Below, in pieces: positions 6,203 to 55,197 of a stretch of 64,000 nt of DNA (position 1 is the first letter of the stretch; each line of letters opens with the position of its first letter). The DNA is from an uncultured Veillonella sp. (lineage in GTDB: Bacteria > Bacillota > Negativicutes > Veillonellales > Veillonellaceae), in NCBI RefSeq assembly GCF_937981445.1, contig NZ_CALJON010000008.1, forward strand, positions 124,442 to 188,441, written 5' to 3'. The translations under genes were made by a program, and so were the position numbers. The notes below the pieces were generated by a model, which searched no databases, was not told where the DNA came from, and saw nothing but the letters and a program-made list of their open reading frames with translations.

Positions 6203-6276
6203 GACTACAAATTAACTCCTGCACATACTAAAATTGGTAGCCACCATTGTAGCTACCAATTTATATGCATATCTAA

Positions 6277-6519
6277 CTACATGCCATGTTGCCATAAGGC
6301 CATAGCAATAACAGGAATAGGCCCAAATAGAGCGCTTAATGCCCACATGCCAAGGCCCATGTCCATTGGGATATGGAAATAGTTAACTGCAATGTAGTAG
6401 GCCGCATAGCCTGTAATTAAATGAATGGCTACGCGTTTAATAGTAAAGTAGGCAATTTTAAAAATCATGTAAATCGCCACAAGGCCTACACCAATTTGTA
6501 TTATAAAATCTAAACCCAT
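6277..6519 (-). CDS. bofA: BofA-like small membrane protein (pro-sigmaK processing inhibitor family)
   Basis: The ORF track gives 6277-6531 with a GTG start overlapping the recR stop. An internal ATG at 6519 has GAGGA 5 nt upstream. Two or three TM segments, an FHIP motif as in Bacillus BofA, and the position after recR matches the Bacillus dnaX-yaaK-recR-yaaL-bofA order. Confidence 0.5.
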   Translation of the reverse strand: MGLDFIIQIGVGLVAIYMIFKIAYFTIKRVAIHLITGYAAYYIAVNYFHIPMDMGLGMWALSALFGPIPVIAMALWQHGM

Positions 6520-6527
6520 AGAAATCC

Positions 6528-7118
6528 TCACATTTCCCGGCGATTCACTACGGCACCGCCTAATGTCAATTCATCAGCATATTCAATGTCGCCACCTACT
6601 GGTACGCCACGAGCAATGCGGGTCACCTTAATCCCTGTAGGCTGTAATAAGCGAGCTATATATAAAGCCGTTGCTTCCCCCTCTACATCAGGGTCTGTCG
6701 CTAAAATCACTTCTTGTACAGTTTCATCGCGAAGTCGAGCAATTAATTCTTTAATGCGAATATCTTCTGCCCCAATGCCTTCAATAGGAGATAATGCACC
6801 TTCTAGTACATGATATACCCCTTTATAATCGCCACTGCGCTCAATAGCCATAACATCACGAGATGTTTCCACCACGCATATGGTGCTATGATCTCGTTGT
6901 TCATTGGCACAAAATTGACATGGGTCTTGTGCGGACAAATTGAAGCAAATGGAGCAGCGTTTAGTTGCTTCCTTAGCAGCCTTGATAGTCTCTACTAAAT
7001 CATCCACTTCTTCAGCTGGTAATTCTACTAAATGATAGGCTAAGCGTCGCGCTGACTTTGCCCCAATGCCTGGTAAGCGTCGCAATGATTCTACGAGCTT
7101 TTCTAATGCATTTGTCAT
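6528..7118 (-). CDS. recR: Recombination protein RecR
   Basis: 196 aa with an N-terminal HhH, zinc finger CSICFNLSAQDPCQFC and Toprim motif ATDPDVEGEATA. Confidence 0.95.
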   Translation of the reverse strand: MTNALEKLVESLRRLPGIGAKSARRLAYHLVELPAEEVDDLVETIKAAKEATKRCSICFNLSAQDPCQFCANEQRDHSTICVVETSRDVMAIERSGDYKGVYHVLEGALSPIEGIGAEDIRIKELIARLRDETVQEVILATDPDVEGEATALYIARLLQPTGIKVTRIARGVPVGGDIEYADELTLGGAVVNRREM

Positions 7119-7119
7119 A

Positions 7120-7446
7120 TTAGAATAATCCTGGAATATTCAAGCCGCCTGTTACTTTACCCATTTCCTGAGCCATCATATCGTCTACTTTGCGACCTGC
7201 TTCATTCACAGCAGATACGATAATGTCTTCTAACATTTCTACATCTTCTGGGTCAACAGCTGCTGGGTTGATTTGAATGGATTGAACCACTTTTTCACCA
7301 TTCATTACCACTGTAACAGAACCGCCGCCGGCAGATGCTTCTACAGTGCGTTGTTTAAGTTCTTCCTGCATTTTTTGCATATCTGCTTGCATCTTTTGAA
7401 CTTTCTTCATCATACCTTGCATATTGCCCATACCTTTATTAAACAT
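7120..7446 (-). CDS. ybaB: YbaB/EbfC-family nucleoid-associated protein
   Basis: The ORF track starts at 7470. The ATG at 7446 has GGAGG 7 nt upstream and gives a protein of about 108 aa, typical of the family. Sits between dnaX and recR. Confidence 0.9.
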   Translation of the reverse strand: MFNKGMGNMQGMMKKVQKMQADMQKMQEELKQRTVEASAGGGSVTVVMNGEKVVQSIQINPAAVDPEDVEMLEDIIVSAVNEAGRKVDDMMAQEMGKVTGGLNIPGLF

Positions 7447-7636
7447 TCGATTGCCTCCTTGTAAATACAATTAATTATTATATATTATACCCTATAACCG
7501 ATTACTTTGTCATAAGGTTCCTTTTTATTCAATCATAGTATTGTTGCTACACACAGTCTTAAATCTCATAAGCCGTGTGCCACCACGACCATAGATCGCT
7601 CCCACTAAGATTTACGGCTGAGCTTCAGTCTCAAGT

Positions 7637-10300
7637 TTATGAATGAGGGGGAGTCTCATCGTCCTCATCAGGGATGATTTCTACATATATATCATTGCCT
7701 TCTGCAGCGGCCGTAGTCAACGCACCTAATAAAAGAGGATTATTGCGTTCCTCCTCCGTGCTCTGGTCAGGACTCCACTTAGGTAGGTTTTCTAAGGCCT
7801 TTCGATTGATGCCTTCCACCATCTCATCACTGCTATTAGTCCCCGTATTTATAGGCGACGCTGGTGGATTAGGCTGCGTAGTCATCGTGACCATATTACT
7901 ACTAGGATCTAATCCTGCTTCAATTTGAGCACTGCCGAAATCATCAATAATATCAGCCCCTGGTGCTTCTGGAGTCAGTCCATAGGGCGTATCCTGTGAA
8001 TCAGGACTTACGGTCAAGGCAGGACCCGAATTCGTTCCCACATTACGCTTAGCTAGTGCTGCCAAGGCGGCTTGTTTTGCCATTTCATGATTAGATTGAG
8101 CTGCTGTCCCTTGAATTGGTGGTGCTCCCATGACAGCGTTCTCGCCTTGCATTGGCGGCGTACTCATGGTGGCGGTTCCCCCTTGAGTTGACAGCGCACC
8201 CAGAGCAGAGCTTCCCCCTTGAGTTGGTGGAGCTCCCATAACAGAGTTCTCGCCTTGAGCTAGCGGCGCAGTCATAGCAAGATCGTTTTCCTTAGCATGA
8301 CCTACACTGGACACTGCCGCGGAAGGCGCTCCATGGTGCATAGGGGCCACCTCTGGAGCCACTTGTCCTTGAGTACCACTCGCTTTATGATGACTACCAG
8401 AACCAAATAAATTTTTTAACGCCTCTCGATAGCCTTGGTCTGTCGGACTATTATGACTAATTACTTGCACCGATAGAGGACGTCCTACTACATGGAGCAA
8501 AGCCTCTTCTACTTCACCTAAGCGCGTTGCTGAGCCAGCAATACTAATTAAGCTAGGTCCCTTAAAAACAAACACTGCATGAGTTTCATCCAAATAACTC
8601 ATAGCAGACATACTAAAGAAACTGCGTGTCATTTGCCAATTCTTTTTCTTTGTGTACTCAATGACTTTTTGCCATATATCTTTATATTGACTAGGATGAA
8701 CCACTTGTTGCCCTAATATGATAGCCATATTTCCAGGGGTTGATAAAATTTGCTTTTTACCTTTACCAGCTTTACCCCCTGTATGACTGTTATTATTAGC
8801 AGTTGGTGCACCATTACCGGCCAGACGTTGCACGCGAGGTGGCTGCATACCAGGTACGGCAGCAGTACCGCCATTCATCATAGTCCCTGCTGAAGCCGGC
8901 ACACTTGGCAAAACGCCGCCTGAAGGATGATTCCCTAATGTAGCACTTGGAAGCTGATTTTCTAATGCATCACCTGGGAGTTGATTTCCTAAAATAGTAC
9001 CGGGGTTACCAGACATAGGACTTGTTAAACCACCTACTGGCTGCGCTGTATAGGCTCCATTCATAGGTCCTGCCTGTGCCCCTTGGTGAACCGGAAAATT
9101 ACCGGACTCAACCACTTGCTCTAATTCAGCAATACGTGTAGCCAATGCATCGCGATCAGCCCCTAAATTTCGCTCGATGGCAGCAACTCGCTCTTCCACA
9201 TCGGCCCCATCAGATTGCACCCGCGCGCAAAGCCCTAAGAGTCCCATTTCAATAACGATACGAGGATTATCAACCCGTTTAGCATCATTTAAGACCTGCT
9301 GCAATTCCTTTACATAATAGTTTAATTCATCAATACTCACACTACTTGCTTGTACTGTAAAACTTTCTTTAAAGGGTGTATACAAACTTAGTTCTTCCGC
9401 ATTAGGCATTACTTTTTGAATCAAGAGGGCCCTTACATGTTCTATGAGGGCTTCTAAAATTTGACGACTATCGCGCCCTTCCATAAGGGCTGTCTTAGCG
9501 GCTACTAACACATTAGCACCATCTCCAGCACGCAAGATATCAAAGAAGGAAATAATCCACTCCTTGCTCACTAAGCCAATCATAGTTTCCACGGTACTCG
9601 CCGTAATCGTATCAGATGTCATGCCTGAACATTGGTCTAAAATGCTGAGCGCATCACGTAACCCGCCATCTGCATGAATAGCAATTAATTGCGCTGCCTG
9701 CGGGTCTAAGGATATATTAGAGGCCTGAGCCACCTTCAATAAATGAGCACTAATATCTTCTGCTGTAATGCGTCTAAACGTATAGCGTTGACAGCGAGAT
9801 AAAATTGTTACAGGTAATTTATCTATTTCAGTAGTAGCAAAAATAAATAGCACATGATCTGGCGGCTCTTCAATGGTCTTTAAAAGCGCATTCCAAGCTT
9901 CATTAGTAAGCATATGGGCTTCATCAATGATGAATATTTTTTTGCGTCCTTCTACGGGTAAGAATTTTACACTTTCACGAAGAGCCCGTATTTCATCAAT
10001 GCCGCGATTAGAAGCCGCATCAATTTCCATAACGTCCATGGACTGGCCATTTAAAATCTGCTTACAACTCGTACATTCATTACAAGGATGGTCAGTGGGG
10101 CCTTTTTCACAGTTGATAGCACGGGCGAAAATTTTTGCAATACTAGTCTTACCTGTTCCCCTTGGTCCAGAAAACAAGTATGCATGGGCCACTTTATCTT
10201 CCCGAATAGCCCGCATCAAGGTTTCACTCACTTGCTTTTGTCCTACTACATCGGTGAATGTTTGAGGTCGCCATTTTCTATATAAAGCTAAATAACTCAT
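7637..10300 (-). CDS. dnaX: DNA polymerase III subunit gamma/tau with a greatly extended low-complexity C-terminal half
   Basis: 887 aa. Walker A GPRGTGKTS, zinc module CNECTSCKQI, Walker B IFIIDEAHML and sensor SRCQRY. The C-terminal roughly 480 aa are rich in G/P/Q/A/S/T repeats. Confidence 0.95.
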   Translation of the reverse strand: MSYLALYRKWRPQTFTDVVGQKQVSETLMRAIREDKVAHAYLFSGPRGTGKTSIAKIFARAINCEKGPTDHPCNECTSCKQILNGQSMDVMEIDAASNRGIDEIRALRESVKFLPVEGRKKIFIIDEAHMLTNEAWNALLKTIEEPPDHVLFIFATTEIDKLPVTILSRCQRYTFRRITAEDISAHLLKVAQASNISLDPQAAQLIAIHADGGLRDALSILDQCSGMTSDTITASTVETMIGLVSKEWIISFFDILRAGDGANVLVAAKTALMEGRDSRQILEALIEHVRALLIQKVMPNAEELSLYTPFKESFTVQASSVSIDELNYYVKELQQVLNDAKRVDNPRIVIEMGLLGLCARVQSDGADVEERVAAIERNLGADRDALATRIAELEQVVESGNFPVHQGAQAGPMNGAYTAQPVGGLTSPMSGNPGTILGNQLPGDALENQLPSATLGNHPSGGVLPSVPASAGTMMNGGTAAVPGMQPPRVQRLAGNGAPTANNNSHTGGKAGKGKKQILSTPGNMAIILGQQVVHPSQYKDIWQKVIEYTKKKNWQMTRSFFSMSAMSYLDETHAVFVFKGPSLISIAGSATRLGEVEEALLHVVGRPLSVQVISHNSPTDQGYREALKNLFGSGSHHKASGTQGQVAPEVAPMHHGAPSAAVSSVGHAKENDLAMTAPLAQGENSVMGAPPTQGGSSALGALSTQGGTATMSTPPMQGENAVMGAPPIQGTAAQSNHEMAKQAALAALAKRNVGTNSGPALTVSPDSQDTPYGLTPEAPGADIIDDFGSAQIEAGLDPSSNMVTMTTQPNPPASPINTGTNSSDEMVEGINRKALENLPKWSPDQSTEEERNNPLLLGALTTAAAEGNDIYVEIIPDEDDETPPHS

Positions 10301-10374
10301 CAGCCCCTCCTTCCTACAGTCATCACATCTACTACTATTTAATACTCTCTACGTCACATTCTAATAATACATAT

Positions 10375-10400
10375 AAAAAAAGCAGCGGTAACCGCTGCTT
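10375..10400 (-). terminator. Intrinsic terminator of the SRP RNA gene
   Basis: Minus strand reads GCAGCGGTTACCGCTGC followed by TTTTTTT. Confidence 0.85.
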
Positions 10401-10404
10401 TCTT

Positions 10405-10566
10405 CTGCCTATGCAGCACTCGATTATGACAGCCTCATAGGTTCCCTTGTGGCACATGGAAGTGACCGCTTAGTGCTGCTATCTCTCGATCCTGACACGA
10501 TTCACAGGCTCCCATTGCACAAGCCCCACAAGACTGCCATAATCCAGTCCTGCATTACGGCTAGCT
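10405..10566 (-). ncRNA. ffs: Signal recognition particle RNA (about 155-160 nt)
   Basis: Minus-strand GUCAGGAUCGAGAGAUAGCAGC (10475-10496) matches the SRP helix-8 consensus (E. coli GUCAGGUCCGGAAGGAAGCAGC), with compensatory stem changes and a GNRA loop. The 5' GCCGUAAUGCAGGACUGGAUUAUGGCAG pairs with the 3' CUGUCAUAAUCGAGUGCUGCAUAGGC. It has its own promoter and terminator and lies upstream of dnaX as in Bacillus. Confidence 0.85.
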
Positions 10567-10571
10567 ATATC

Positions 10572-10600
10572 ATTATATCTTAATAAAGGGAAAAATACAA
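10572..10600 (-). promoter_or_regulatory. sigma70-type promoter of ffs
   Basis: Minus strand TTGTAT-17 nt-TATAAT, with the -10 ending about 6 nt before the proposed RNA 5' end. Confidence 0.7.
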
Positions 10601-10617
10601 TACTAGGAAGTACAGCC

Positions 10618-10762
10618 TCTTTATTATCTTTATTATCTTTATGGTCTTTGTTATCTTTGTTATCTTTGTTATATTTATTTTCCATGTTATCCTTGTTCTC
10701 TGTATGCTCTTTGTTCTCTGTGTGCTTTTTGTTCCCTATGTTCCCTTTCTCATCTTCATTGT
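10618..10762. repeat. Degenerate 9-nt tandem array, about 16 copies (CTTTGTTAT-like)
   Basis: CTTTATTAT CTTTATTAT CTTTATGGT CTTTGTTAT x3 and further diverged copies. Pyrimidine-rich on the + strand, immediately upstream of the ffs promoter. Confidence 0.8.
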
Positions 10763-10975
10763 CTCCAGTATACTTACATATTGATTTCAATATGTATAAA
10801 ATATGATTTCCCAATCTACAATTCGCTAAAAGTCCCTCGGTTTTAATTCTACAGTCTATACGAATGCGAAAAACTTGTAGTATAATATATTTTGTGCTTT
10901 TTTTATGGAAATTATAACAGTTATTAAATATTTACTTTCTTTTTCTATTCTATACGTTTTAATGAAAGGATTTAT

Positions 10976-12394
10976 ATGGATTTATTCAACAATATAATCG
11001 GTTCCATTACTGGTTTCCTTTGGGACTATATCATTATTATCTTCCTCATTGGCGCTGGTATTTGGTTTTCCATTACTACTAAGTTCATTCAAATACGAGA
11101 AATAAAGGAAATGGTCCGACTCCTAGGTGAAGGTGTGGGCACAAAAACAGAAGGTAATCGCATTTCCTCCTTCCAAGCTTTCTGTGTTAGCTCCGCATCA
11201 CGCGTTGGTGTTGGAAATATTGCCGGTATTGCCATTGCTGTCGTACTCGGTGGTCCTGGCGCAGTATTTTGGATGTGGTTCATCGCCTTTCTAGGGGCCT
11301 CCACAGGCTTTGTAGAAAGTACATTGGCACAGATTTACAAAGTTCCTTCCCAAAAAGGTGGCTTCCATGGCGGTCCTGCCTATTATATTAAAGCCGGCTT
11401 GAAAAGTCCCTTCTTTGCCTTCCTATTTGCCGTACTAATCAGTGTTACCTATGGACTTATTTACAACTCCGTTCAAGCTAATACGATTTCCATGGCCTTA
11501 CAAGTGTTTGAGCTAAATGGTCATATTGTAGGACTAACTGTAGCCATTCTTACGGCCCTAGTTATCTTCGGTGGCATTGCGCGCATCGCCAAACTTAGCG
11601 AATGGTTCGTGCCTCTTATGGCTGGTATTTATATTTTAACCGCTGTCTTTATTACCTTAGTACATATTACGGAACTACCACACATTTTATATCGCATCGT
11701 TACCGAAGCCTTTTCCTTTGATGCAGCCTCTGGCGGCTTCTTTGGCGCCGCCATGATGAATGGTATCAAGCGTGGCCTTTTCTCCAACGAAGCAGGCGAA
11801 GGTTCCGTCCCAAATGCTGCAGCCACGGCCGATGTAAGTCATCCTGTAAAACAAGGTCTTATCCAAAGCTTTGGGGTATTCGTGGATACCTTCTTAGTAT
11901 GTAGTGCCTCCGCTTTTATCGTGCTTTTATCAGGTAATTTTGAAACCTCTGGACTTACGGGGATCGCCTTAGTACAACATGATTTATCCCTTCAATTAGG
12001 CAGTTGGGCCCCTAGTGTCATGGCCATTTTCATCTTTATGTTTGCCTTCTCCTCTATTGTAGGCAACTACTACTATGGTGAAATTAACATTGCCCATTTA
12101 ACTAAAAATCCAATGTACCTCAACATATTCCGTATCTTAGTCGTCTTCATGGTATACTTTGGCTGTGTAGCGTCTTTAAATCTTGTGTGGAATCTAGCGG
12201 ATCTCTTCATGGCCTTCATGGTACTCACCAACTTAACGGCCATTTTATTACTCAACAAACAATCTGAACTGGCTACCCTAGACTATTTCAAACAGAAAAA
12301 AGCAGGTATCAAAGAACCCGTATTCCACCGCGATGTATTAACTGACCGCGATGGCATTGTATGGTGGCATGAAAATGCTAAGCACCAAGACTAA
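10976..12394 (+). CDS. Alanine/glycine:cation symporter (AGCS family)
   Basis: 472 aa and polytopic. The N-terminal pattern (FLWDYIIIIFLIGAGIWFSITTKFIQIRE) and overall layout are typical of sodium:alanine symporters. AAAGGA lies 5 nt upstream of the ATG. Confidence 0.85.
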   Translation: MDLFNNIIGSITGFLWDYIIIIFLIGAGIWFSITTKFIQIREIKEMVRLLGEGVGTKTEGNRISSFQAFCVSSASRVGVGNIAGIAIAVVLGGPGAVFWMWFIAFLGASTGFVESTLAQIYKVPSQKGGFHGGPAYYIKAGLKSPFFAFLFAVLISVTYGLIYNSVQANTISMALQVFELNGHIVGLTVAILTALVIFGGIARIAKLSEWFVPLMAGIYILTAVFITLVHITELPHILYRIVTEAFSFDAASGGFFGAAMMNGIKRGLFSNEAGEGSVPNAAATADVSHPVKQGLIQSFGVFVDTFLVCSASAFIVLLSGNFETSGLTGIALVQHDLSLQLGSWAPSVMAIFIFMFAFSSIVGNYYYGEINIAHLTKNPMYLNIFRILVVFMVYFGCVASLNLVWNLADLFMAFMVLTNLTAILLLNKQSELATLDYFKQKKAGIKEPVFHRDVLTDRDGIVWWHENAKHQD

Positions 12395-12406
12395 ATAAAA
12401 AACAAA

Positions 12407-12478
12407 AACGCCATAAACACTTCACTGCATCAGTCGAATATATCGAATTTGATGTGAGAAGTAGTTATGGCGTTTTTT
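12407..12478. terminator. Long-stem bidirectional terminator
   Basis: AACGCCATAAACACTTCAC ... GTGAGAAGTAGTTATGGCGTT followed by TTTTTT, preceded by an A-run, between convergent genes. Confidence 0.75.
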
Positions 12479-12489
12479 ATTTCCATCAT

Positions 12490-13716
12490 TTATCCTTCAA
12501 ATTCCGCCTTAATTGCTTTTAATGTATCAGGTGTTTCCATTAAATGTAACAAGGTTTTCACGATAATAGACGCCCCTTCTTCAATGGACGTTTTAATGGT
12601 TGGTTCAGTCATAGCCTGAGCAAATTCGATGGTATGACACACTTTATCAGCCCCTTTTAGGCGTAAGGTAGGATGAAAGGCAGGGCAAATTTTACTTACA
12701 TTGCCAATATCTGAACTTCCTAGGTCAGTGGGCTTACCAGTTTTATGTGGAATAGCAAGCTCCTCGTAAACCTGCTCAATAAGGGCTGTGCCGGCCTCAT
12801 TCCACTTCATGTCATCAAAGCTATTGCCGTACATGTTCATTTCATAGGTCGTCCCAGTTGCTAGGGCCGCCCCTTTTACACAATTAGTAATTTTATATAC
12901 CAAGGTATCCAAATACGCCCGTTCTGTATGACGCACACAAAGTTCAAATTCCGCATATTCTGGAATTACATTCGATGCATTGCCACCATTAATAACATAG
13001 TAACCAATGCGTGTTTCTGGCCTTGTTTGCTGACGAAGCATGTCTATCGCCTGAAATGCTAAATTCATGCCATTAAGCGCATTAACACCATTCCAAGGCT
13101 CACCGGCCGCATGAGCTGGTACACCATGAAAGGCTATGCGATAACAATCAAGAGCTAAAAAGGCTGAATTAGCCCGTGATTCAACGCCATCCATATGAAC
13201 CATGATAGCAAAATCATACTCATCAAATTCACCAGCCTTAACTAAATCAACCTTACCACCAGTGGCCTCCTCATCCGGTGTACCTATAATATCCACATCC
13301 ATAGGTAAACCCTCAGCGCCTTCCGCCTTAAGCGCAGCATCAAGCCCTTTTAAAGTTAATGCTGCTAAGGTGCTAATAGAGCCGCTAGCACAATGTCCAC
13401 AACCATGGCCAATATTAGGCAGGGCATCATATTCACATAAAATAGCCAATCTTGGACGACGTAGCCCTTTACGCCCGTGAATCATCAAACCTGTCGTAGT
13501 ATCGCCTTTGATGACTTGTCCTCTAAAGGAGTGTGTAACGCCACTAAGTTCACGAGAAATAGGAATCCCTGCCCCTTCAAGAATCGAACTAATATAACGA
13601 GCCGATTGTTCTTCCTGCCCCGATATTTCTGGATGTGCTGCAAGTTCAAAATTTATATTGAATGCTTGTTCCTTATGCGCTTCTATCTGTGCCTTAGCAC
13701 GTTCCCAATATGTCAT
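12490..13716 (-). CDS. M20-family amidohydrolase / peptidase
   Basis: 408 aa. Metal-ligand-like NIGHGCGHCASG and a DEE(A)TGG block. Layout matches an M20 catalytic domain plus dimerisation domain. Confidence 0.8.
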   Translation of the reverse strand: MTYWERAKAQIEAHKEQAFNINFELAAHPEISGQEEQSARYISSILEGAGIPISRELSGVTHSFRGQVIKGDTTTGLMIHGRKGLRRPRLAILCEYDALPNIGHGCGHCASGSISTLAALTLKGLDAALKAEGAEGLPMDVDIIGTPDEEATGGKVDLVKAGEFDEYDFAIMVHMDGVESRANSAFLALDCYRIAFHGVPAHAAGEPWNGVNALNGMNLAFQAIDMLRQQTRPETRIGYYVINGGNASNVIPEYAEFELCVRHTERAYLDTLVYKITNCVKGAALATGTTYEMNMYGNSFDDMKWNEAGTALIEQVYEELAIPHKTGKPTDLGSSDIGNVSKICPAFHPTLRLKGADKVCHTIEFAQAMTEPTIKTSIEEGASIIVKTLLHLMETPDTLKAIKAEFEG

Positions 13717-14099
13717 ACAAACCTCCTATGTCTCAATGGTTCACACATAAACGCCCTTCATTACTGCTTATTACATGTCAAAGTGCTCTGCATTGAAGCG
13801 TAGTTCACACTTAAGCCTTTTCTTCAAAACGTATTTTACACGCAACCAATAGTCTCTGTAAATTTATAACTCAATCAGTGCATAAATTCAAATGCCATAC
13901 ACTTTGCTTTTTATTATACTCATTTCACCTATATAAGTATACATAGAGTTTTATAAATCGCTATCAACCAATTTATTCATTGTACTATTTCGTGTTTTTC
14001 CGTCTATTTAGCAAATAACATCTTAGCGTTATTTCTTTATAGCAGATGGTATCTCCTATGAATAACCTCAAGAAATTAAGTAATTCTATCATTTCTATG

Positions 14100-31195: not shown

Positions 31196-31574
31196 ATAAA
31201 AAAAGCCCTCAGTCACTATTGTGACCAAGGGCGATAATCGCGGTTCCACCTTGATTCATCTAATGCACTTTTATTTAAGAGCATTAAATATCTCTAACTG
31301 TACAGGTCTTAAAGACTGTATACAGATTCGCTGTAACGGGCGACACCCGAAAAAAACTCCCCTACTACTCATCAGCGCATTATCAAGGGCGACTCCGTCA
31401 ACCTCCATAAGCTTTGCCTTCATAACTCCAAGATGCACTTCCATATATGTCCTATGACCCGCTCTCACCGTCCGGGCTCTCTGCACATATTCTCATATAT
31501 GTACTCTTCTCTTCATCGTCTGATTTCTATTCAAATCGTAAACCTACTATAACACTATGAATTAACCCTGTCAA
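31196..31574 (-). promoter_or_regulatory. T-box riboswitch leader, probably Cys-specific, with its promoter, upstream of cysK-cysE
   Basis: Minus strand: TTGACA-17-TATAGT; GAUGAAGAGAAGAGUA; AG bulge CAGAGAG; distal loop ACGGUGAGAG; specifier region GGAAGUGCAUC; T-box core AAUCAAGGUGGAACCGCG; terminator GCCCTTGGTCAC-AATA-GTGACTGAGGGC followed by TTTTTTT. Confidence 0.85.
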
Positions 31575-33423: not shown

Positions 33424-34041
33424 TTAAGTCCGATCTTTATAAGATATATGTGCTTTAACCTGTTCGTCTATAATAGGCCAGGCCGTTTCGTACATATACC
33501 GATACCCCAATGTATTAGGATGTACATCACCAGCAAAGATAATCTCTTTTCGTGCATCCGCTGCTAGTAAGGCGTCATAAAAATTAATCACTACCAAGCC
33601 TTGCGCCTTTGCATAAGCTAAAATTAGTTCCCCATAGGCCTTTACTACGGCATTATCCCCATCAGGGTCAAAATCAATATGAGGTGGCAGACCCAGAATA
33701 GGTATTGCCCCAAGGGATTGAATATATGCCACATTTTTCTTCAACATGTGAAAACAATCTTCAGCCCTGCGACCTTGCAAAATATCATTGGTACCGCCCA
33801 TGATGATAATAAAATCATAGGGAGTTTTTGTCATCCCACACTGGCACTCTAAATTATTATATATGGCCTGTAAAGTAGCACCATCCACACCGGCATTGCG
33901 AAGAATCCACGGACTAGCGCCCTTAAAAGAAGTCTCCTTCTCAACAGCTCGTAAGGCCTTAATACTCAGCTCAACCCAGCCTTCACCATAGGGCACATCA
34001 TAACCTCGAGTGAGACTGTCTCCTATAAACAAAATATTCAT
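33424..34041 (-). CDS. SGNH/GDSL-family hydrolase
   Basis: 205 aa. Block I ILFIGDSLT, block III GGTND, block V GDVHPN. Confidence 0.85.
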   Translation of the reverse strand: MNILFIGDSLTRGYDVPYGEGWVELSIKALRAVEKETSFKGASPWILRNAGVDGATLQAIYNNLECQCGMTKTPYDFIIIMGGTNDILQGRRAEDCFHMLKKNVAYIQSLGAIPILGLPPHIDFDPDGDNAVVKAYGELILAYAKAQGLVVINFYDALLAADARKEIIFAGDVHPNTLGYRYMYETAWPIIDEQVKAHISYKDRT

Positions 34042-34061
34042 TGTCCTACCCCAGCATTAAA

Positions 34062-34290
34062 CATCTATCGTTAATTTCACGTATCTATTTCTTTACTTCG
34101 CATCCCCATCTTTATTTCACATTTTCTTACTTCACATATCCATCTTTATTTCACATATCTTCTTTATTTCGCATATTTTTTATTTTATGCAGCTATCGTT
34201 AATCTCACACAGCTTAAGCGTATGTTAATAAGTAACCTATGTTAATGTTAATGTTAATGTTAATGTGAATGTGAATAAATAGCCTATGTT
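34062..34290. repeat. Composite intergenic repeat region including (ATGTTA)n
   Basis: TATCGTTAAT(T/C)TCAC occurs at 34066 and 34194, flanking TTTATTTCAC/TTACTTCAC-type degenerate repeats. ATGTTAATGTTAATGTTAATGTTAATGTGAATGTGAAT at 34239-34276. Confidence 0.75.
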
Positions 34291-34345
34291 AATGTGAATC
34301 TTGTTGTAATTTTTACTGGCCTTAACTTTTTATCTTACTTAAATT

Positions 34346-35044
34346 CTATTTGTTTTGCTTTAATAAAGGATCCGTCGTGCCATTCAACTCAAAAGCCTTA
34401 ATGCGGTCAATGCAAGTACCGCAGGTGCCACAAGGGGTGTCGCCACCTTCGTAACAACTCCAAGTTAATTCATAAGGCACTTTAAGACCTAAGCCCACAC
34501 CCACAAGTTGGGCTTTATTTTTATCCGCAAAAGGGGCCACCACTTTCACCTTTTCATAAGTCCCTATGTTAATAGCCTGACCCATGGCGGCAATAAAGGC
34601 TTCACTACAATCAGCATAGGCATTCCCGGCCGCATCATCAGCATGAGCACCAAGATAAATTTCAACCTCTTCCTCAGGAAACAAACTCATACCAAGTGCC
34701 GCCACGGCCGACATCATGAGACCATTTCGAAATGGCACATAAGTACTGACTATGCCAGTACCATCTTCCGCAATCTGTTTCGCATAACTCTTATGACTAA
34801 TTTCATCTGTAGAGCCTTGCATGAGTGAAGAATTGGAATATTTTAAAATATTCGCTAAATTTAATTCATAATGAGGCACTTTATAATACGCCGCAATCTG
34901 TCTAGCACAAGCTAGTTCCTTATCATGTTTTTGACCATAAAAAATCGAAACCGCGGCTACATTCTCTGCCCCTAAACGATCAATAGCTAATGCTAAGCAA
35001 GTGGTAGAATCTACACCACCACTAGATAATACAATGGCTTTCAT
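34346..35044 (-). CDS. queC: 7-cyano-7-deazaguanine synthase
   Basis: 232 aa. PP-loop VLSSGGVDSTT, YGQKH, VPFRNG, and C-terminal zinc cysteines CGTCGTCIDR. Starts 18 nt after the ecfT stop. Confidence 0.9.
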   Translation of the reverse strand: MKAIVLSSGGVDSTTCLALAIDRLGAENVAAVSIFYGQKHDKELACARQIAAYYKVPHYELNLANILKYSNSSLMQGSTDEISHKSYAKQIAEDGTGIVSTYVPFRNGLMMSAVAALGMSLFPEEEVEIYLGAHADDAAGNAYADCSEAFIAAMGQAINIGTYEKVKVVAPFADKNKAQLVGVGLGLKVPYELTWSCYEGGDTPCGTCGTCIDRIKAFELNGTTDPLLKQNK

Positions 35045-35062
35045 TTTATTCTCCTTATGTGT

Positions 35063-35743
35063 TTACATCATTCCCTGACCATATATAACTAAACCAATTG
35101 TAATGGCCAGGAGAATCAAAGTTACCAAGTAATCAAGGCCACGCATACCTACCTTAGCAACGAAGCTATGGTCTTCATTGCCAAAGCCGCGGAGTTCCAA
35201 TGACAGCGCCATTGTTTCCGAGCGACCTAAGGATTTTAAAAGTAATGGCTGCATGATAGAGCCATAGGATTTACAGCGTTTTAAAAAGTTACTATCTAGT
35301 GCTAGTCCTCGGCATGCTTGTGCCTCTTGAACGGCCCGACTTTCGGCAATAAAGTCTGGCACAAAGCGTAAGGCCGCCGTAAACATAAAGGCATATTCAT
35401 AAGGGATTTTACACTGTGTTACAAGAGCTGCCGTTAAATCCTGCAATTTAGTTGTCGCCAAAAGCATAATAAATACCATGGTCATACAGAGCATGCGAAG
35501 GCCTGTTACATAAGCCGACTCTAAAGTGCCGCCACCTACGTATTGCACTAAAGATAAAAATGCCGCAAAGACAGCCAAAGTAAGTACAGCCTTATATTGT
35601 TTTACCAATAAACCGGTTACGAGTAACAATACAAGCTCTAAGCCTAATAATAAAGAAAGTTCCAAGGATGTTTGAAGTAAAATAGCCCAAATAGAGAAGG
35701 CAATGGTCATTAATATTTTTGTAAATGGTACAAGTCGTTTCAT
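35063..35743 (-). CDS. ecfT: ECF transporter transmembrane (T) component
   Basis: 226 aa, CbiQ/EcfT-like, with coupling-helix Arg motifs (AESRAVQEAQACRG, SETMALSLELRG). Confidence 0.85.
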   Translation of the reverse strand: MKRLVPFTKILMTIAFSIWAILLQTSLELSLLLGLELVLLLVTGLLVKQYKAVLTLAVFAAFLSLVQYVGGGTLESAYVTGLRMLCMTMVFIMLLATTKLQDLTAALVTQCKIPYEYAFMFTAALRFVPDFIAESRAVQEAQACRGLALDSNFLKRCKSYGSIMQPLLLKSLGRSETMALSLELRGFGNEDHSFVAKVGMRGLDYLVTLILLAITIGLVIYGQGMM

Positions 35744-35752
35744 AATTGCCTC

Positions 35753-36595
35753 CTATTTCATCATATCTACTGTATGAGCCTTCACTGCTGCACCTTGTTT
35801 TAGTGCTAACATGCGCTCTTCAAACTCAACCATGGACTTGCAATACCCAATCCCTGGTACGGCATCAGATAATTCTACACAAGCAGGCTTAGTCAATCCT
35901 AAATCGAATAAATCATCACGTTTGGTAAACAATTCTTCTGGTGTACCATCAAAGGCCTTGGTGCCATAGCCAACAATAATGGCTCGCGTACAATGACCAG
36001 CGATAATTTCCATATCATGAGTCACTAGTATAATTGTTAAACCTGTAGCGCGCAATGTTTCTAATAGTTCCAATAACTCTCGTGTTTCCTTGCCATCTTG
36101 ACCACTCGTTGGCTCATCAAGGATTAAAATCTTTGAATTCATAGCCAATGCTGAGGCAATGGCCACCCTTTGTTTTTCACCGCGGCGCAATGTTGGTGGG
36201 TAGGCCTCTTTTAAATGAAGAATCCCTGTTTGCGCCAAAGCTCGATCTGTAATTTCACTAACCTCAGCTTTTGTATACCCTAATTGCTCGGGACCAAAAG
36301 ATACTTCTGCCCCTACAGTGGGACGGAACATTTGGCGATCTGGCTGTTGAAATACATAGCCTATGAAACGGCCCCGATCAGCTGGTGCAAGTTTTGTAAT
36401 ATCTTCGCCATCATAATATATGTTGCCACCGCGAGGCTTTTCAAGCCCCATTAAAAGTCTTGTTACCGTTGTTTTGCCACATCCATTGCGGCCCCCTAAA
36501 GCGATAAACTCGCCTTCTCCTATGGTAAAATCCACATCATCAATTATGTCACGACCTGGCACATAACCAAATCGTAAGCCCTTCACTTCTAACAT
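35753..36595 (-). CDS. ecfA: ECF transporter ATPase component
   Basis: 280 aa. Walker A GRNGCGKTT, signature LRRGEKQRVAIA, Walker B ILILDEPTSGQD. Confidence 0.9.
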   Translation of the reverse strand: MLEVKGLRFGYVPGRDIIDDVDFTIGEGEFIALGGRNGCGKTTVTRLLMGLEKPRGGNIYYDGEDITKLAPADRGRFIGYVFQQPDRQMFRPTVGAEVSFGPEQLGYTKAEVSEITDRALAQTGILHLKEAYPPTLRRGEKQRVAIASALAMNSKILILDEPTSGQDGKETRELLELLETLRATGLTIILVTHDMEIIAGHCTRAIIVGYGTKAFDGTPEELFTKRDDLFDLGLTKPACVELSDAVPGIGYCKSMVEFEERMLALKQGAAVKAHTVDMMK

Positions 36596-36631
36596 AGCAT
36601 CCTCCTATTGGTGCTGTATCCAACTTTATCT

Positions 36632-38095
36632 TTAATTCTTCAATCCAGCTTTAGCAGCTTTTACACTGAGCCATGGCTCATTAAATGTATAGCCACCTTG
36701 TTCAAGACGCATATAAGTAACAAAGATAGAAGGCAACGCATCTACATAAATATTATGTTCATACATATAGCGCAAGGTCGCTTCTGCCGTATCATCACAT
36801 TGTAAGGCCCCATCTACCATGAGAGCTACGCGATTGGCATAAGGAAGTACAGCCTGTAAATCATGGTCAATAACTACTACTGTGATGCCATAGTCCTTAT
36901 TTAAACTGCCTACTAAACGATATAACTCTTCGGTCCCTTCTGGATCTAGGGAGCTCGTTGGTTCGTCTAATACTAAGATTGATGGGTTCGTAGCCAACAC
37001 GGAAGCGATAGCCAAGCGTTGACGCTGGCCGCCAGAAAGGCTCGTGATTTTTCGCTCTTCCATGCCTTCAAGGCCGACTTGTTTAAATACGATAGCACTG
37101 CGTTCCTTAATCTCGTCTGGTGTATAACCTCGATTTTCCATGGCAAAGGCCACTTCTTCGCCTACTGTCATAGTGACGAGCTGCGTATCATAATCGGCTA
37201 ATACAACGCCAATTTCCGTAGCAAGTTCTGCTATTTCTAATTGTGTTGTCGCCTTGCCATTAACAAATACCATGCCCTCCATACGGCCGCCATAAAATTT
37301 AGGTACCGCCCCAATCATGGCCATGCACAAGGTGGATTTACCACAACCCGCTGGACCTGTAATAACCAAGAAATCTCCATCATTAACAACTAAATTTACA
37401 TCTTTAATCGCTGGCTCTTCCCTATGACCATAGTAATAAGTAAAATGTTCCATGCTGATTTTTCCATCCACCGCAGGCACTAATTCTAACTCACTATGAT
37501 CACTGGTAATTACTTCATCAGCACTCGGTAAGTAGCCACGGCGAGCAAATAAACGCTGTGCGGGAATAAAAAGAAGTGGTGTTACTACAGCATTACAAAG
37601 GGATATGATTAAAACTAAAGGCCACATGCCTTTTAAATATACATCTAAAGGTAAATCTAACAATACATATAAAATACTAACAAATATGCCCCCAGATACT
37701 AAGGTACTAAAGAACCCAGACACAACTGGTGGTATTACATTTCGGCCTAATTTAACGCGGCTAAATAATTGTACTACAAAGGCACAAACAAGAGCCCCAG
37801 CTGGTTCACTTAGCAAATTAGCATAAGGAAACGCGGACTTAGAAGTCATCACATTAATAAGCGCTGCCACAAGACCAATCCCTACCGCTTGCCGATAATT
37901 AGGGCGGGTTAAGTGAATTGCTACACAGTACGTAGCAATCATCCAATTCGGCGTAATCCCCGCCACACTAGGGCTCACTAAGTGTAAAATAGTGCCCAAG
38001 GCGAGCATCAAGGTACTTACTGTTACCCAGCGAAACTGACCGCCTTGCATATGTGTATATACTAATTTTGAAACATCAGTCACTCGTTCCATCAT
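36632..38095 (-). CDS. Fusion of an ECF substrate-specific (S) membrane domain with an ECF ATPase domain
   Basis: The ORF track starts at 38137, inside the leader terminator. The ATG at 38095 follows AGGAGG. About 200 aa with 5-6 TM segments, then an ABC domain (GPAGCGKST, LSGGQRQRLAIA, ILVLDEPTSSLD). Confidence 0.85.
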   Translation of the reverse strand: MMERVTDVSKLVYTHMQGGQFRWVTVSTLMLALGTILHLVSPSVAGITPNWMIATYCVAIHLTRPNYRQAVGIGLVAALINVMTSKSAFPYANLLSEPAGALVCAFVVQLFSRVKLGRNVIPPVVSGFFSTLVSGGIFVSILYVLLDLPLDVYLKGMWPLVLIISLCNAVVTPLLFIPAQRLFARRGYLPSADEVITSDHSELELVPAVDGKISMEHFTYYYGHREEPAIKDVNLVVNDGDFLVITGPAGCGKSTLCMAMIGAVPKFYGGRMEGMVFVNGKATTQLEIAELATEIGVVLADYDTQLVTMTVGEEVAFAMENRGYTPDEIKERSAIVFKQVGLEGMEERKITSLSGGQRQRLAIASVLATNPSILVLDEPTSSLDPEGTEELYRLVGSLNKDYGITVVVIDHDLQAVLPYANRVALMVDGALQCDDTAEATLRYMYEHNIYVDALPSIFVTYMRLEQGGYTFNEPWLSVKAAKAGLKN

Positions 38096-38116
38096 AAACC
38101 TCCTAAAAAAGGGTAT

Positions 38117-38510
38117 AAAAAAAACCTTCCAATCCAACTAATACAAATGTACTAGGGACGAAGGTTACTCCGCGGTGCCACCCCAATTGATTCAATACGA
38201 ATCCGGCTCACTACGTACGGCTCATCATAGAAAGTGATAGAACTGTAAAAGAATTACATACATAGCAAACGCTCTTATATATTGCTCTTCCTATCTGGCG
38301 ATACGCGCTCCTTTGTTAACGGTCAGAGACGACCGGTGGTACCTACTCAAATTCGGGCCACATCTCCCAGGGCCATTCCTTACAATGTCCAGCATCGGGC
38401 TTCCACCACTCCCAACTCGCTGTAGCTGACTACTTATAAGTACTCTTCCTGTTCGTAGATGATGTCTTTATGTTTTGCTTAATTATACACACAAGAAAAT
38501 ACTAAGTCAA
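38117..38510 (-). promoter_or_regulatory. T-box riboswitch leader (specifier probably UGG, Trp) with promoter, upstream of the ECF operon
   Basis: Minus strand: TTGACT-17-TATAAT; AGAGUA-CUUAUAA stem partner UUGUAAG-GAA-UGG-C; AG bulge AGCGAG; distal loop AGUGGUGGAAG; T-box core AAUUGGGGUGGCACCGCG; terminator AACCTTCG ... GGAAGGTT followed by TTTTTTTT. Confidence 0.85.
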
Positions 38511-38535
38511 TAGGAAGATATGTATTTTTATTAAT

Positions 38536-38564
38536 TTGACAAATGTCTCGCTATATACTACTAT
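38536..38564 (+). promoter_or_regulatory. sigma70-type promoter of the pan-operon leader, divergent from the T-box promoter
   Basis: TTGACA-17 nt-TACTAT. Confidence 0.55.
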
Positions 38565-38787
38565 CATAACGTAGTGTGAAGCACCTAGCTTTTTATAGAG
38601 CCCTACTTTGGAATGAAAGCGCCATAGAGGCTAATATCAAATGGTATCGACTCAGAACTGTATTGATATTGAATCATGCCGCATCATATCCTACACAGTA
38701 TGCCTAGTAACAGCCATTCACTTACAAACGCAATATTCGCTTGGATCAATTAGACCGGGACGAGACGCAACAAAAGAGATTTTTCAT

Positions 38788-38818
38788 GCGCATTTCGGGC
38801 CGAAGTGCGCCTTTTTTT
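38788..38818 (+). terminator. Intrinsic terminator inside the 5' leader of the pan operon
   Basis: GCGCATTTC-GGGCC-GAAGTGCGC followed by CTTTTTTT, 136 nt upstream of the first pan-operon start codon. Confidence 0.8.
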
Positions 38819-38953
38819 ATATGGGACCAGTCTGCTTTAGCCTGGCCCTCTTACGCGTTAGCCGTACCGGAATTCACTTTATTACACAAAGTATTCAATT
38901 CCTGTAAAGCTAGCGCGTTTTCTTTTGTTCCCTATCCGGCAGAAAGGAGAATT

Positions 38954-39883
38954 ATGAATCTCGGTATTATCGGTGGTGGTAAAGTGGGGACTACCTTAGG
39001 CCTCTACTTAAAAGACCAGCTTCGAGGAATTACGGCGCATTCTAAAGAATCATCAGAAAAATTAGCGACCTATTTTAAGCTCCCCCCCCCCTATACTAAT
39101 GAAGAGTTAGTACAGGTAAGTGATGTCATTTTCATTACCGTTCCCGACCGAATGATTGGCCCTATGGCTTATGAATTAGCCCAATCCATAGGAAAAAGAC
39201 TTCAGCCCAATCAAAGCCTACAAGGCAAGACGTTTCTACACTGCAGTGGCAGTTTAGGCCTAGAAACACTGGCCCCCTTGCAAGCATTAGGGGCATCCAC
39301 CGGGAGCCTTCATCCCTTACAAAGCTTTGCGATTCATCCTCTAGAAAGAACTCGCCCAGATACACCCCCACACCTAGATAGTATAACGGATCTCAACGGT
39401 GTGTTCATGGCCCTAGATGGTGATAACCAAGCCCTCCAAGTTGGTGAGGCCATCGTCAATTTATTAAAAGGTCATGCCTTTCACGTGCCGGCCCAGGAGC
39501 GTCCGCTCTATCATGCAGCCGCCTGCCTTTGTTCTAATTATGTAGTTACCTTAGAAACACTGGCTACTAAACTCATGAGCCGTTGGGCTGGTGAGCATGC
39601 TTGGGAAGCCTTACGGCCCTTATTTGAAGGTACTGTTAAGAATCTAACACAAGAGCCTCCCCCTAAGCAAGGGCCCAATCCTGCCGCAGCGTTAACAGGG
39701 CCTATTGCGAGAGGTGATAAAGCCACTATTAAGAGTCATTTAGACCAAATGCCAGTAGAGTTAAAAGAACTCTATTGTGTATTAGGCCGCTATACTACAA
39801 CTATCGCCGTAGAACAAGGATATATTGATTCATCCACAGCCCAATCCTTTGAAGCACTATGGCAAGAGATGTTAACTAAGTAA
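38954..39883 (+). CDS. Rossmann-fold / DUF2520-type oxidoreductase, candidate ketopantoate reductase
   Basis: The ORF track starts at a TTG (38741) and runs through the terminator. The ATG at 38954 follows AAAGGAGA. Dinucleotide fold MNLGIIGGGKVG. First gene of the panBCD operon. Confidence 0.75.
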   Translation: MNLGIIGGGKVGTTLGLYLKDQLRGITAHSKESSEKLATYFKLPPPYTNEELVQVSDVIFITVPDRMIGPMAYELAQSIGKRLQPNQSLQGKTFLHCSGSLGLETLAPLQALGASTGSLHPLQSFAIHPLERTRPDTPPHLDSITDLNGVFMALDGDNQALQVGEAIVNLLKGHAFHVPAQERPLYHAAACLCSNYVVTLETLATKLMSRWAGEHAWEALRPLFEGTVKNLTQEPPPKQGPNPAAALTGPIARGDKATIKSHLDQMPVELKELYCVLGRYTTTIAVEQGYIDSSTAQSFEALWQEMLTK

Positions 39884-54928: not shown

Positions 54929-55197
54929 AAAAGCCCCTGAATTCACATCGTGAATCCAGGGGCGTTATGACATAACACGGTACCACCCTAGTTGGTGCTC
55001 TATAGTTATAACGGAACTACCGTCATGGCTTACTTAGTTTCAGCCACAATGCTCACAGGGGAGTTTCGATTATACAAGCTCTATTGCCTCACACCAACCG
55101 GCAACTCTCTGAAAGCAACTTAGTATATCTTTAAACCTGCTCATTGCATCTTTCATTTGATGTGTGTTATTTTCTCACAGGAAAAGACAATTGTCAA
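54929..55197 (-). promoter_or_regulatory. T-box riboswitch leader (probably Leu, CUC) with candidate promoter, upstream of leuABCD
   Basis: Minus strand: TTGACA (55192-55197); AG bulge CAGAGAG; distal loop GGUUGGUGUGAGG; specifier region CGAAACUCCCC; T-box core AACUAGGGUGGUACCGUG; terminator GCCCCTGGATTCAC-GATG-TGAATTCAGGGGC followed by TTTT. Confidence 0.85.

Follow-up and report, generated by a model that had tools for sequence, protein, structure and literature searches.

A tRNA-Trp-specific T-box leader ahead of a fused TrpP-type transporter operon in Veillonella, and the probable capture of queC at its 3′ end by deletion

Here we consider a group of four closely spaced genes and the leader preceding them in a 64,000-nucleotide (nt) stretch of DNA from an uncultured Veillonella sp. 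(contig NZ_CALJON010000008.1, positions 124,442 to 188,441), the whole of which is referred to below as the window. The leader contains a T-box, and the genes encode a fusion of a TrpP-type S component with an EcfA-type ATPase (S/A), a second ATPase (A′), an EcfT protein (T), all three belonging to the energy-coupling factor (ECF) class of transporters, and finally QueC, an enzyme of the queuosine (Q) pathway. The observations are best accounted for by a dedicated tryptophan ECF importer controlled by a T-box responding to tRNA-Trp, to which queC was added as a passenger captured by deletion, and we regard this joint reading as quite probable. The system belongs to two kinds already known, Trp-specific T-box leaders and TrpP-type ECF importers, and the connection between the T-box and queC is, as judged from the comparison of genomic sequences, a deletion scar rather than a conserved design.

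All features of the locus lie on the minus strand of the window (Table 1), and the arrangement outlined in a preliminary description of this DNA was recovered in place. That description presented queC as the last member of a tightly packed series, starting 18 nt after ecfT and provided with an AAGGAGA ribosome-binding site (RBS), and in all these respects it holds. No terminator is predicted in the 18-nt gap, which leaves no room for one, and neither a terminator nor a promoter came to light between the two genes in the window; a scan confined to the sigma-70 consensus gave no site with at least 9 of 12 matches on the coding strand over the last ~580 nt of ecfT. The product of queC itself exceeds the cut-off of the TIGR00364 equivalog model (150.3 bits) and carries both LSSGGVDST near the N-terminus (the SGGxDS PP-loop) and WSCYEGGDTPCGTCGTCIDR near the C-terminus (the Zn-binding Cys cluster). 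No second real QueC was found elsewhere in the genome, hence the window copy is the only one, and the pathway is otherwise complete with its genes scattered (queD elsewhere on contig C8, queF on C11, tgt and queA on C50). Neither preQ1 nor any other riboswitch was detected near the queD, queF or tgt/queA loci, and within 34000–39000 of the window none besides the T-box appeared up to E = 1. A literature search found no report of queC under a T-box. On its 3′ side queC is separated from a GDSL gene by 304 nt (34042–34345), against ~20–100 nt in the relatives measured; this spacer consists of (ACATTA)n and A-rich repeats of ~15 nt, gives no terminator-like fold (z-score −1.2) and differs in length among metagenome strains.

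Related loci point to the origin of the ecfT–queC neighborhood. The S/A, A′, T operon is encoded at all 26 related Veillonellaceae loci compared, and queC comes after ecfT at only one of them, L003, which belongs to the closest species (89% identity; genome G009) and has a 438-nt spacer between the two genes. In this spacer a hairpin (folding energy −27.8 kcal/mol, z-score −4.3, 0 of 200 shuffles as good) is followed by UUUUUCUUU and looks like an intrinsic terminator; having a 9-nt loop, it was missed by the terminator scanner and recovered by folding, and an AT-rich repeat region lies 3′ of it. Several other related loci possess a terminator directly after ecfT (15 loci scanned, the window not among them). 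The queC–GDSL pair is kept in 10 of the 11 other genomes of the genus, where its upstream neighbor is an aminotransferase gene with a terminator. The full order is preserved in the 16-kb locus L044 of a sister species (V. seminalis-type), comprising T-box, S/A, A′, T, HisJ, ten further genes, terminator, queC and GDSL. The block following ecfT there (4249–13842, ~9.6 kb) includes the gene for HisJ (histidinol phosphatase; NCBIfam, 292.6 bits), hisZ, hisG, hisD and an aminotransferase gene, which is probably hisC, and a tblastn search of the window genome gave no match at E < 1e-10 for any of these his genes. A hisJ/his operon of this kind separates ecfT from queC in most sister species. Over 12 genomes of the genus, hisD is absent from that of the window (G000), G009 and G010; of the remaining nine, at least seven have it 5–8 kb from queC on the same contig. 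Thus, queC became the neighbor of ecfT through loss of the his operon.

The ancestor of the genus may accordingly be pictured with the order T-box, S/A, A′, T, hisJ together with the his operon, terminator, queC and GDSL. After loss of the his operon in the window lineage, a second deletion (unless the whole change took place in one step) would have joined the ecfT stop codon to a point 18 nt upstream of queC, would have removed in the same event the terminator and the promoter region of queC, and would have left queC to be read through from the T-box promoter. As a separate observation, in L044 the 316-aa (amino acid) HisJ frame begins with an ATG that shares bases with the stop codon of ecfT (ATGA, L044:4249–4252), so that HisJ may ride on the Trp T-box operon as another 3′-end passenger.

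It was initially suggested that queC is placed under tRNA-charging control. This idea stands as regards physical adjacency without a terminator, and it falls as regards regulatory design, in view of the occurrence of this gene order at a single one of the 26 loci, the terminator of L003, the his operon of the relatives and the polymorphism described below. Expression of queC by read-through from the T-box, and hence its coupling to tryptophan limitation, appears about balanced in likelihood, leaning if anything toward acceptance. The stricter version, in which the sole queC of the genome would lack a promoter of its own and depend entirely on T-box read-through, so that production of preQ0 and the Q content of Asp, Asn, His and Tyr tRNAs would be coupled to Trp starvation, is held only tentatively, a shade below that balance. 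Since the strain is apparently auxotrophic for Trp, its switch may for much of the time be in the on state, which would make the capture tolerable.

The competing proposal that queC is adjacent yet transcriptionally independent, being served by a promoter toward the 3′ end of ecfT that is weak or departs from the consensus, seems rather unlikely. It is favored by the strong RBS that queC retains and by the fact that the pathway, with queD, queF, tgt and queA all present, has no other queC to draw on, so that selection might prefer its constitutive expression; besides, weak promoter-like sites with 9 of 12 matches do occur farther upstream, at 35676–35647 and 35896–35869 on the minus strand. 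However, such sites are no more frequent than expected for A+T-rich coding sequence, the consensus sigma-70 scan left the last ~580 nt before queC devoid of them, and the AT-rich promoter-like region of ~240–440 nt that precedes queC in relatives is entirely missing in the window.

Additional information on the junction came from pig-gut metagenomes, which hold the DNA of this stretch. Contigs from runs X1, X2 and X4 (two studies), 95–99% identical to the window (about 97%), cease to match it precisely at 35062–35064 and continue into unlike sequence beyond this point on both sides, one contig of this set extending 2409 nt past ecfT and another 383 nt upstream of queC. The 30-nt loose ends of these contigs have no meaningful match in the window genome or at any related locus compared, nor any exact match in JGI metagenome contigs. 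At the same time, a contig of run X6 from a different study (record 21, 34999–35259) spans the junction in the window arrangement, with 3 mismatches overall and a match of at least 45 nt on each side. Bridging by the one and breaks in the others mean that the junction exists in nature and is polymorphic among close strains. The coincidence of three assembly breaks from close strains at this very position might raise the suspicion that the 18-nt junction is an assembly artefact of the window genome, but this is highly improbable considering the independent X6 run, the breakpoint overlap of only 3 nt, which is far under the k-mer length of any assembler, and the length of the window contig, collinear with relatives on both sides of the junction. 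As non-coding sequence precedes queC in all the other genomes, the outgroup comparison favors deletion in the window type, and we infer this direction for the last rearrangement.

The regulatory part of the reading relies on the leader, which the preliminary description considered to be a complete T-box element. This is borne out by its match to RF00230 at 106.7 bits over model positions 1–219 (gathering score 93, E 1.4e-22) and by the presence of both a promoter, located by the sigma-70 consensus scan ~17 nt 5′ of the T-box start, and a terminator. In the minimum-energy fold, AACCUUCGUCCC... is placed in a long hairpin followed by UUUUUUUU, and this hairpin takes in CGUCCC of the antiterminator, overlapping its 3′ half, so that the two structures are mutually exclusive; the total folding energy of the 105-nt terminator segment is unexceptional (z-score −0.70). 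The start of the fusion gene is set at ATG 38095 (or 38092), directly 3′ of the RBS AGGAGG at ~38104–38099; the alternative start TTG 38137, offered by the open reading frame finder, was rejected as falling within the terminator region.

For the specifier, Stem I was aligned over 27 leaders, i.e., that of the window, 18 from Veillonellaceae loci and eight from loci of other Negativicutes families. The specifier loop is formed by AGUA on the 5′ side and by GAA plus the codon on the 3′ side, and GAAUGG is invariant in all 27 sequences. The four columns that come one base after UGG form the closing helix with CAGG of the 5′ side, being paired in 100% of the leaders with two pairs changed on both sides (AU in 16 and GC in 11 leaders; GC in 25 and AU in 2). 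Over the entire Stem I, 89.3% of cells are paired and 17 of 22 pairs are changed on both sides, the covariation value of 0.582 contrasting with 0.269 after shuffling (a value as high was reached in 0 of 500 shuffles) and 0.11–0.14 for shifted partners. Pairing and covariation of the closing helix thus show that the specifier loop ends on its 3′ side one base past UGG and exclude the GGC and AUG registers. Independent agreement is provided by the T-box bulge, which in 22 of 23 core-containing Veillonellaceae leaders reads UGGC: this fits tRNA-Trp(CCA) of the genome, ending with G-CCA (G73), and does not fit its four tRNA-Gly genes, all ending with U-CCA (U73). Both the Rfam scan, which placed the codon at UGG, and the Stem I comparison thereby uphold the tryptophan specifier read in the preliminary description, and by this alignment the specifier is UGG (Trp). 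That the codon is instead read in a shifted register (GGC for Gly or AUG for Met), with the switch sensing another tRNA, could be argued from the C replacing the usual purine after UGG in the window and its closest relative L003, and from GGN being glycine in all relatives under such a shift, but this is extremely improbable, because that column is A or G in the other 25 leaders, the helix and the bulge speak for UGG as said, and the gene downstream is TrpP-like.

In length the T-box of the window (315 nt) and that of L003 (5631–5937, 307 nt) exceed those of relatives (~250 nt), the difference being due to a ~97-nt insert between the Stem II region and Stem III (window 38220–38320). The window has two more T-boxes, at 54955–55153 and 31224–31525 on the minus strand, for which cmscan gives the registers CUC (Leu) and UGC (Cys), respectively; in both, one base stands between GAA and the codon (GAA-N-codon), whereas the two are contiguous in the Trp leader.

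The gene next to the leader encodes a single protein of 487 aa, of which the N-terminal ~190 residues are TrpP and the C-terminal part is an ECF-type ATP-binding cassette (ABC) ATPase, so the covalent fusion and the TrpP-type character of its membrane domain, both proposed in the preliminary description, agree with the profile searches. Pfam TrpP (PF17099) matches with 36.5 bits at a cut-off of 27.2 over profile positions 5–161 of 169 (relatives score 37–46 bits), and ABC_tran matches the ATPase part with 98.5 bits; the best NCBIfam model for the latter is ECF_ATPase_1, and for both ATPases of the operon the ECF_ATPase models are the best ones with scores under their equivalog cut-offs. AlphaFold returned a mean pLDDT of 84.9 for the whole fusion and 85.8 for the S domain alone, with six membrane helices at ~18–184 aa, a low-confidence linker of ~27 residues (~185–211 aa) and a nucleotide-binding domain. 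In a Foldseek search of the PDB with the modeled S domain, the top 15 matches were all S components (PanT, RibU, BioY, FolT and ThiT), the best being PanT 6zg3_C with a TM-score of 0.60 in a range of 0.48–0.60, query-normalized, at weak E-values of 0.017 or more; a profile search against PDB sequences gave no match for this domain. On the evidence of the profile and the model, then, the S domain is a TrpP family member with a predicted six-helix S-component fold. The AxxxA motif in helix 1 of S components was implicated in docking on EcfT (PMC11109136). Helix 1 of the S domain reads STLMLALGTIL and contains no strict AxxxA, its small residues being spaced as S27-x3-A31, with A31 nearly invariant and G33 invariant. 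A housekeeping ecfA–ecfA–ecfT module is encoded elsewhere (G000:C11:21746-24136), and the module of the Trp operon is thus an extra, dedicated one.

As to the distribution of the fusion, it was found in all 66 sampled genomes of the order Veillonellales in a class-wide sample, in open frames of 490–585 aa. In other Negativicutes families the closest homologues are, with rare exceptions, solitary proteins of 190–230 aa with 43–57% identity. An exhaustive phmmer search yielded 222 representatives of the S-domain family displaying the architectures S-A (432–518 aa), S-A-A′ (674–790 aa) and S-T (364 aa). PF00005 and PF17099 are combined in 120 of 120 listed database homologues, and the 489-aa homologue from Megasphaera (P0199) is named “tryptophan transporter” by NCBI. 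The fusion is therefore the standard form throughout the order and is already catalogued in databases, so that its initial presentation as an unusual feature of this locus has to be withdrawn. Literature searches found no paper on S-A fusions and none joining TrpP, ECF and T-box.

Considering the window together with the 26 related loci, the T-box stands ahead of the operon in 23 of 27 leaders. Of 12 solitary orthologues from other Negativicutes families, 8 are likewise preceded by a T-box, scoring above the gathering value in six cases and just under it in two (90.3 and 85.0 bits). GAA-UGG-R is common to the eight, and the UGGC bulge to seven of them. The window genome (99.84% complete) revealed no trpA, the gene for the tryptophan synthase alpha chain, which is present in 8 of 12 genomes of the genus and is kept in the sister genome G009, where the his genes are missing; in the absence of trpA the genome needs Trp import, and the strain is probably auxotrophic for both His and Trp. 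From the UGG T-boxes of fused and solitary orthologues, the family assignment and the absence of trpA, we infer that the fused family carries tryptophan. A queuosine-precursor transporter of the QueT/QrtT type was considered as well and rejected on the Pfam TrpP assignment and the distribution. With it goes the notion of a designed queuosine unit, in which the transporter would import a 7-deazaguanine precursor for QueC and the T-box would make Q synthesis depend on the state of the tRNA: queuosine precursors are carried by certain ECF S components (QueT, QrtT) and ecfT and queC are indeed adjacent in the window, this being the only feature of the locus that counts for it, but it hardly deserves credence, as the S domain has no QueT match at E <= 0.01, the same transporter with its UGG T-box is found without queC at 24 of 26 related loci, and the T-box also before solitary orthologues, tRNA-Trp is not among the Q-modified tRNAs (Asp, Asn, His and Tyr), and loss of the his operon accounts for the adjacency.

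Several points weigh against the joint reading proposed here. Four loci of Veillonella sensu stricto (L010, L011, L012 and L014) have the operon without a T-box, so that T-box control is not universal. Tryptophan as the substrate draws on the specifier of the T-box and on the name of the family. Finally, the polymorphic junction could also be explained if the X1/X2/X4 strains had gained more than 2.8 kb by insertion, with AAA as a 3-bp target duplication, instead of a deletion in the window type. In the four loci mentioned, only a short AT-rich promoter region is seen upstream (~5560–6000), and T-box control was apparently lost in this clade.

If the importer is indeed governed by tRNA-Trp, the following sequence of events may be expected. 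The anticodon CCA of uncharged tRNA-Trp would pair with the UGG specifier and its free 3′ end, G73-CCA, with the UGGC bulge, thereby stabilizing the antiterminator and letting RNA polymerase read into the genes. Charged tRNA-Trp would not pair at the bulge, so that the terminator hairpin with its U8 would form and transcription would stop. The putative Trp-binding S component would be tethered to one EcfA by the flexible linker of ~27 residues, and EcfA′ together with the dedicated EcfT would complete the transporter.

Table 1. Coordinates of the features of the T-box–transporter–queC locus in the window
Feature	Coordinates	Strand	Evidence and remarks
Sigma-70-type promoter, TTGACT-17-TATAAT	38510-38482	(-)	11/12 consensus matches; best site of the region
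T-box leader: Stem I, specifier loop, Stem II/IIA-B region, ~97-nt insert, Stem III, antiterminator	38465-38151	(-)	RF00230
Specifier codon UGG (Trp), followed by C38372 and closing stem CCUG	38375-38373	(-)	cmscan codon position; alignment
T-box bulge UGGC, partner of the tRNA 3′ end (discriminator G73-CCA)	38177-38180	(-)	tRNA comparison
Intrinsic terminator of the leader, hairpin and U8	~38166-38115	(-)	Folding
S/A fusion gene, TrpP-type S component and EcfA-type ATPase	38095-36632	(-)	Pfam TrpP and ABC_tran
EcfA′, second ATPase	36595-35753	(-)	ABC_tran, 103.4 bits; best NCBIfam ECF_ATPase_1 and ECF_ATPase_2
EcfT/CbiQ family, dedicated T component	35743-35063	(-)	PF02361, 77.9 bits
ecfT–queC junction, 18 nt, with queC RBS AAGGAGA; breakpoint	35062-35045	(-)	Sequence; metagenome contigs
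queC, 7-cyano-7-deazaguanine synthase	35044-34346	(-)	PF06508, 178 bits; TIGR00364, 161.3 bits

Apart from these features, a pan motif RNA (RF01749) was noticed before the DUF2520–panB operon in sister species (46.9 bits; L006:5396-5498 and L044:559-661), the orthologous leader of the window (38638–38767, plus strand) scoring only 26 bits (E 0.23).

The locus provides a caution for the interpretation of gene order, since a tight 18-nt junction behind a riboswitch mimics designed co-regulation and only the relatives reveal it as the scar of a 9.6-kb his operon loss. Natural and polymorphic rewiring of a sole queC under a tRNA-Trp sensor would be of some interest in itself, and, if it is true, pig-gut strains with fused and unfused queC would represent a natural matched pair for assessing the cost or gain of accidental rewiring. 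As far as the transporter is concerned, the S-EcfA fusion fixed across the whole order would be a natural demonstration that a permanently tethered ECF S component can work, which bears on the debate between toppling and release of the S component, and a single chain of this kind is a convenient target for structural work. Among the comparative data at hand, nothing speaks more strongly for Trp as the cargo of this TrpP subfamily than the invariant UGG T-box, which stands before fused orthologues and solitary ones alike, and the lack of trpA and of the his operon marks the genome as probably that of a gut auxotroph dependent on such importers.

With respect to the known systems, the window shares with the canonical queC contexts (queCDEF clusters and preQ1-riboswitch-controlled que genes) an ordinary QueC in a genome having queD, queF, tgt and queA, and differs in that its que genes are scattered and queC came to lie, as we read it, behind a Trp T-box operon through deletion. 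TrpP of B. subtilis is a solitary protein of ~170 aa, which shares the housekeeping EcfAA′T module and is controlled by TRAP. This protein (YhaG; PF17099; ECF group II) and the S domain of the window have in common the Pfam family, the six-helix fold and regulation by tryptophan availability, whereas the window version forms one chain with EcfA, comes with a separate EcfA′ and EcfT for its own use and is subject to T-box control; trpP is listed among the ECF S-component genes of B. subtilis (PMC11487621). Like group I ECF transporters (CbiMNQO, BioMNY and QrtTUVW), the operon combines S, A, A′ and T beside a housekeeping module, yet here S and A are one polypeptide. Trp-specific T-boxes such as those of B. 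subtilis rtpA-ycbK, of Firmicutes trp operons and of Streptococcus suis trpX (PMC9382623) have the UGG specifier, the UGGN bulge matching the discriminator of tRNA-Trp and the competition between terminator and antiterminator ahead of a Trp supply gene in common with the leader described here, which is distinguished by GAA directly before the codon (7 nt on the 3′ side of the loop), C after the codon and the ~97-nt insert before Stem III. Moreover, the transporter governed by this leader is of the ECF type and not of the binding-protein-dependent ABC type.

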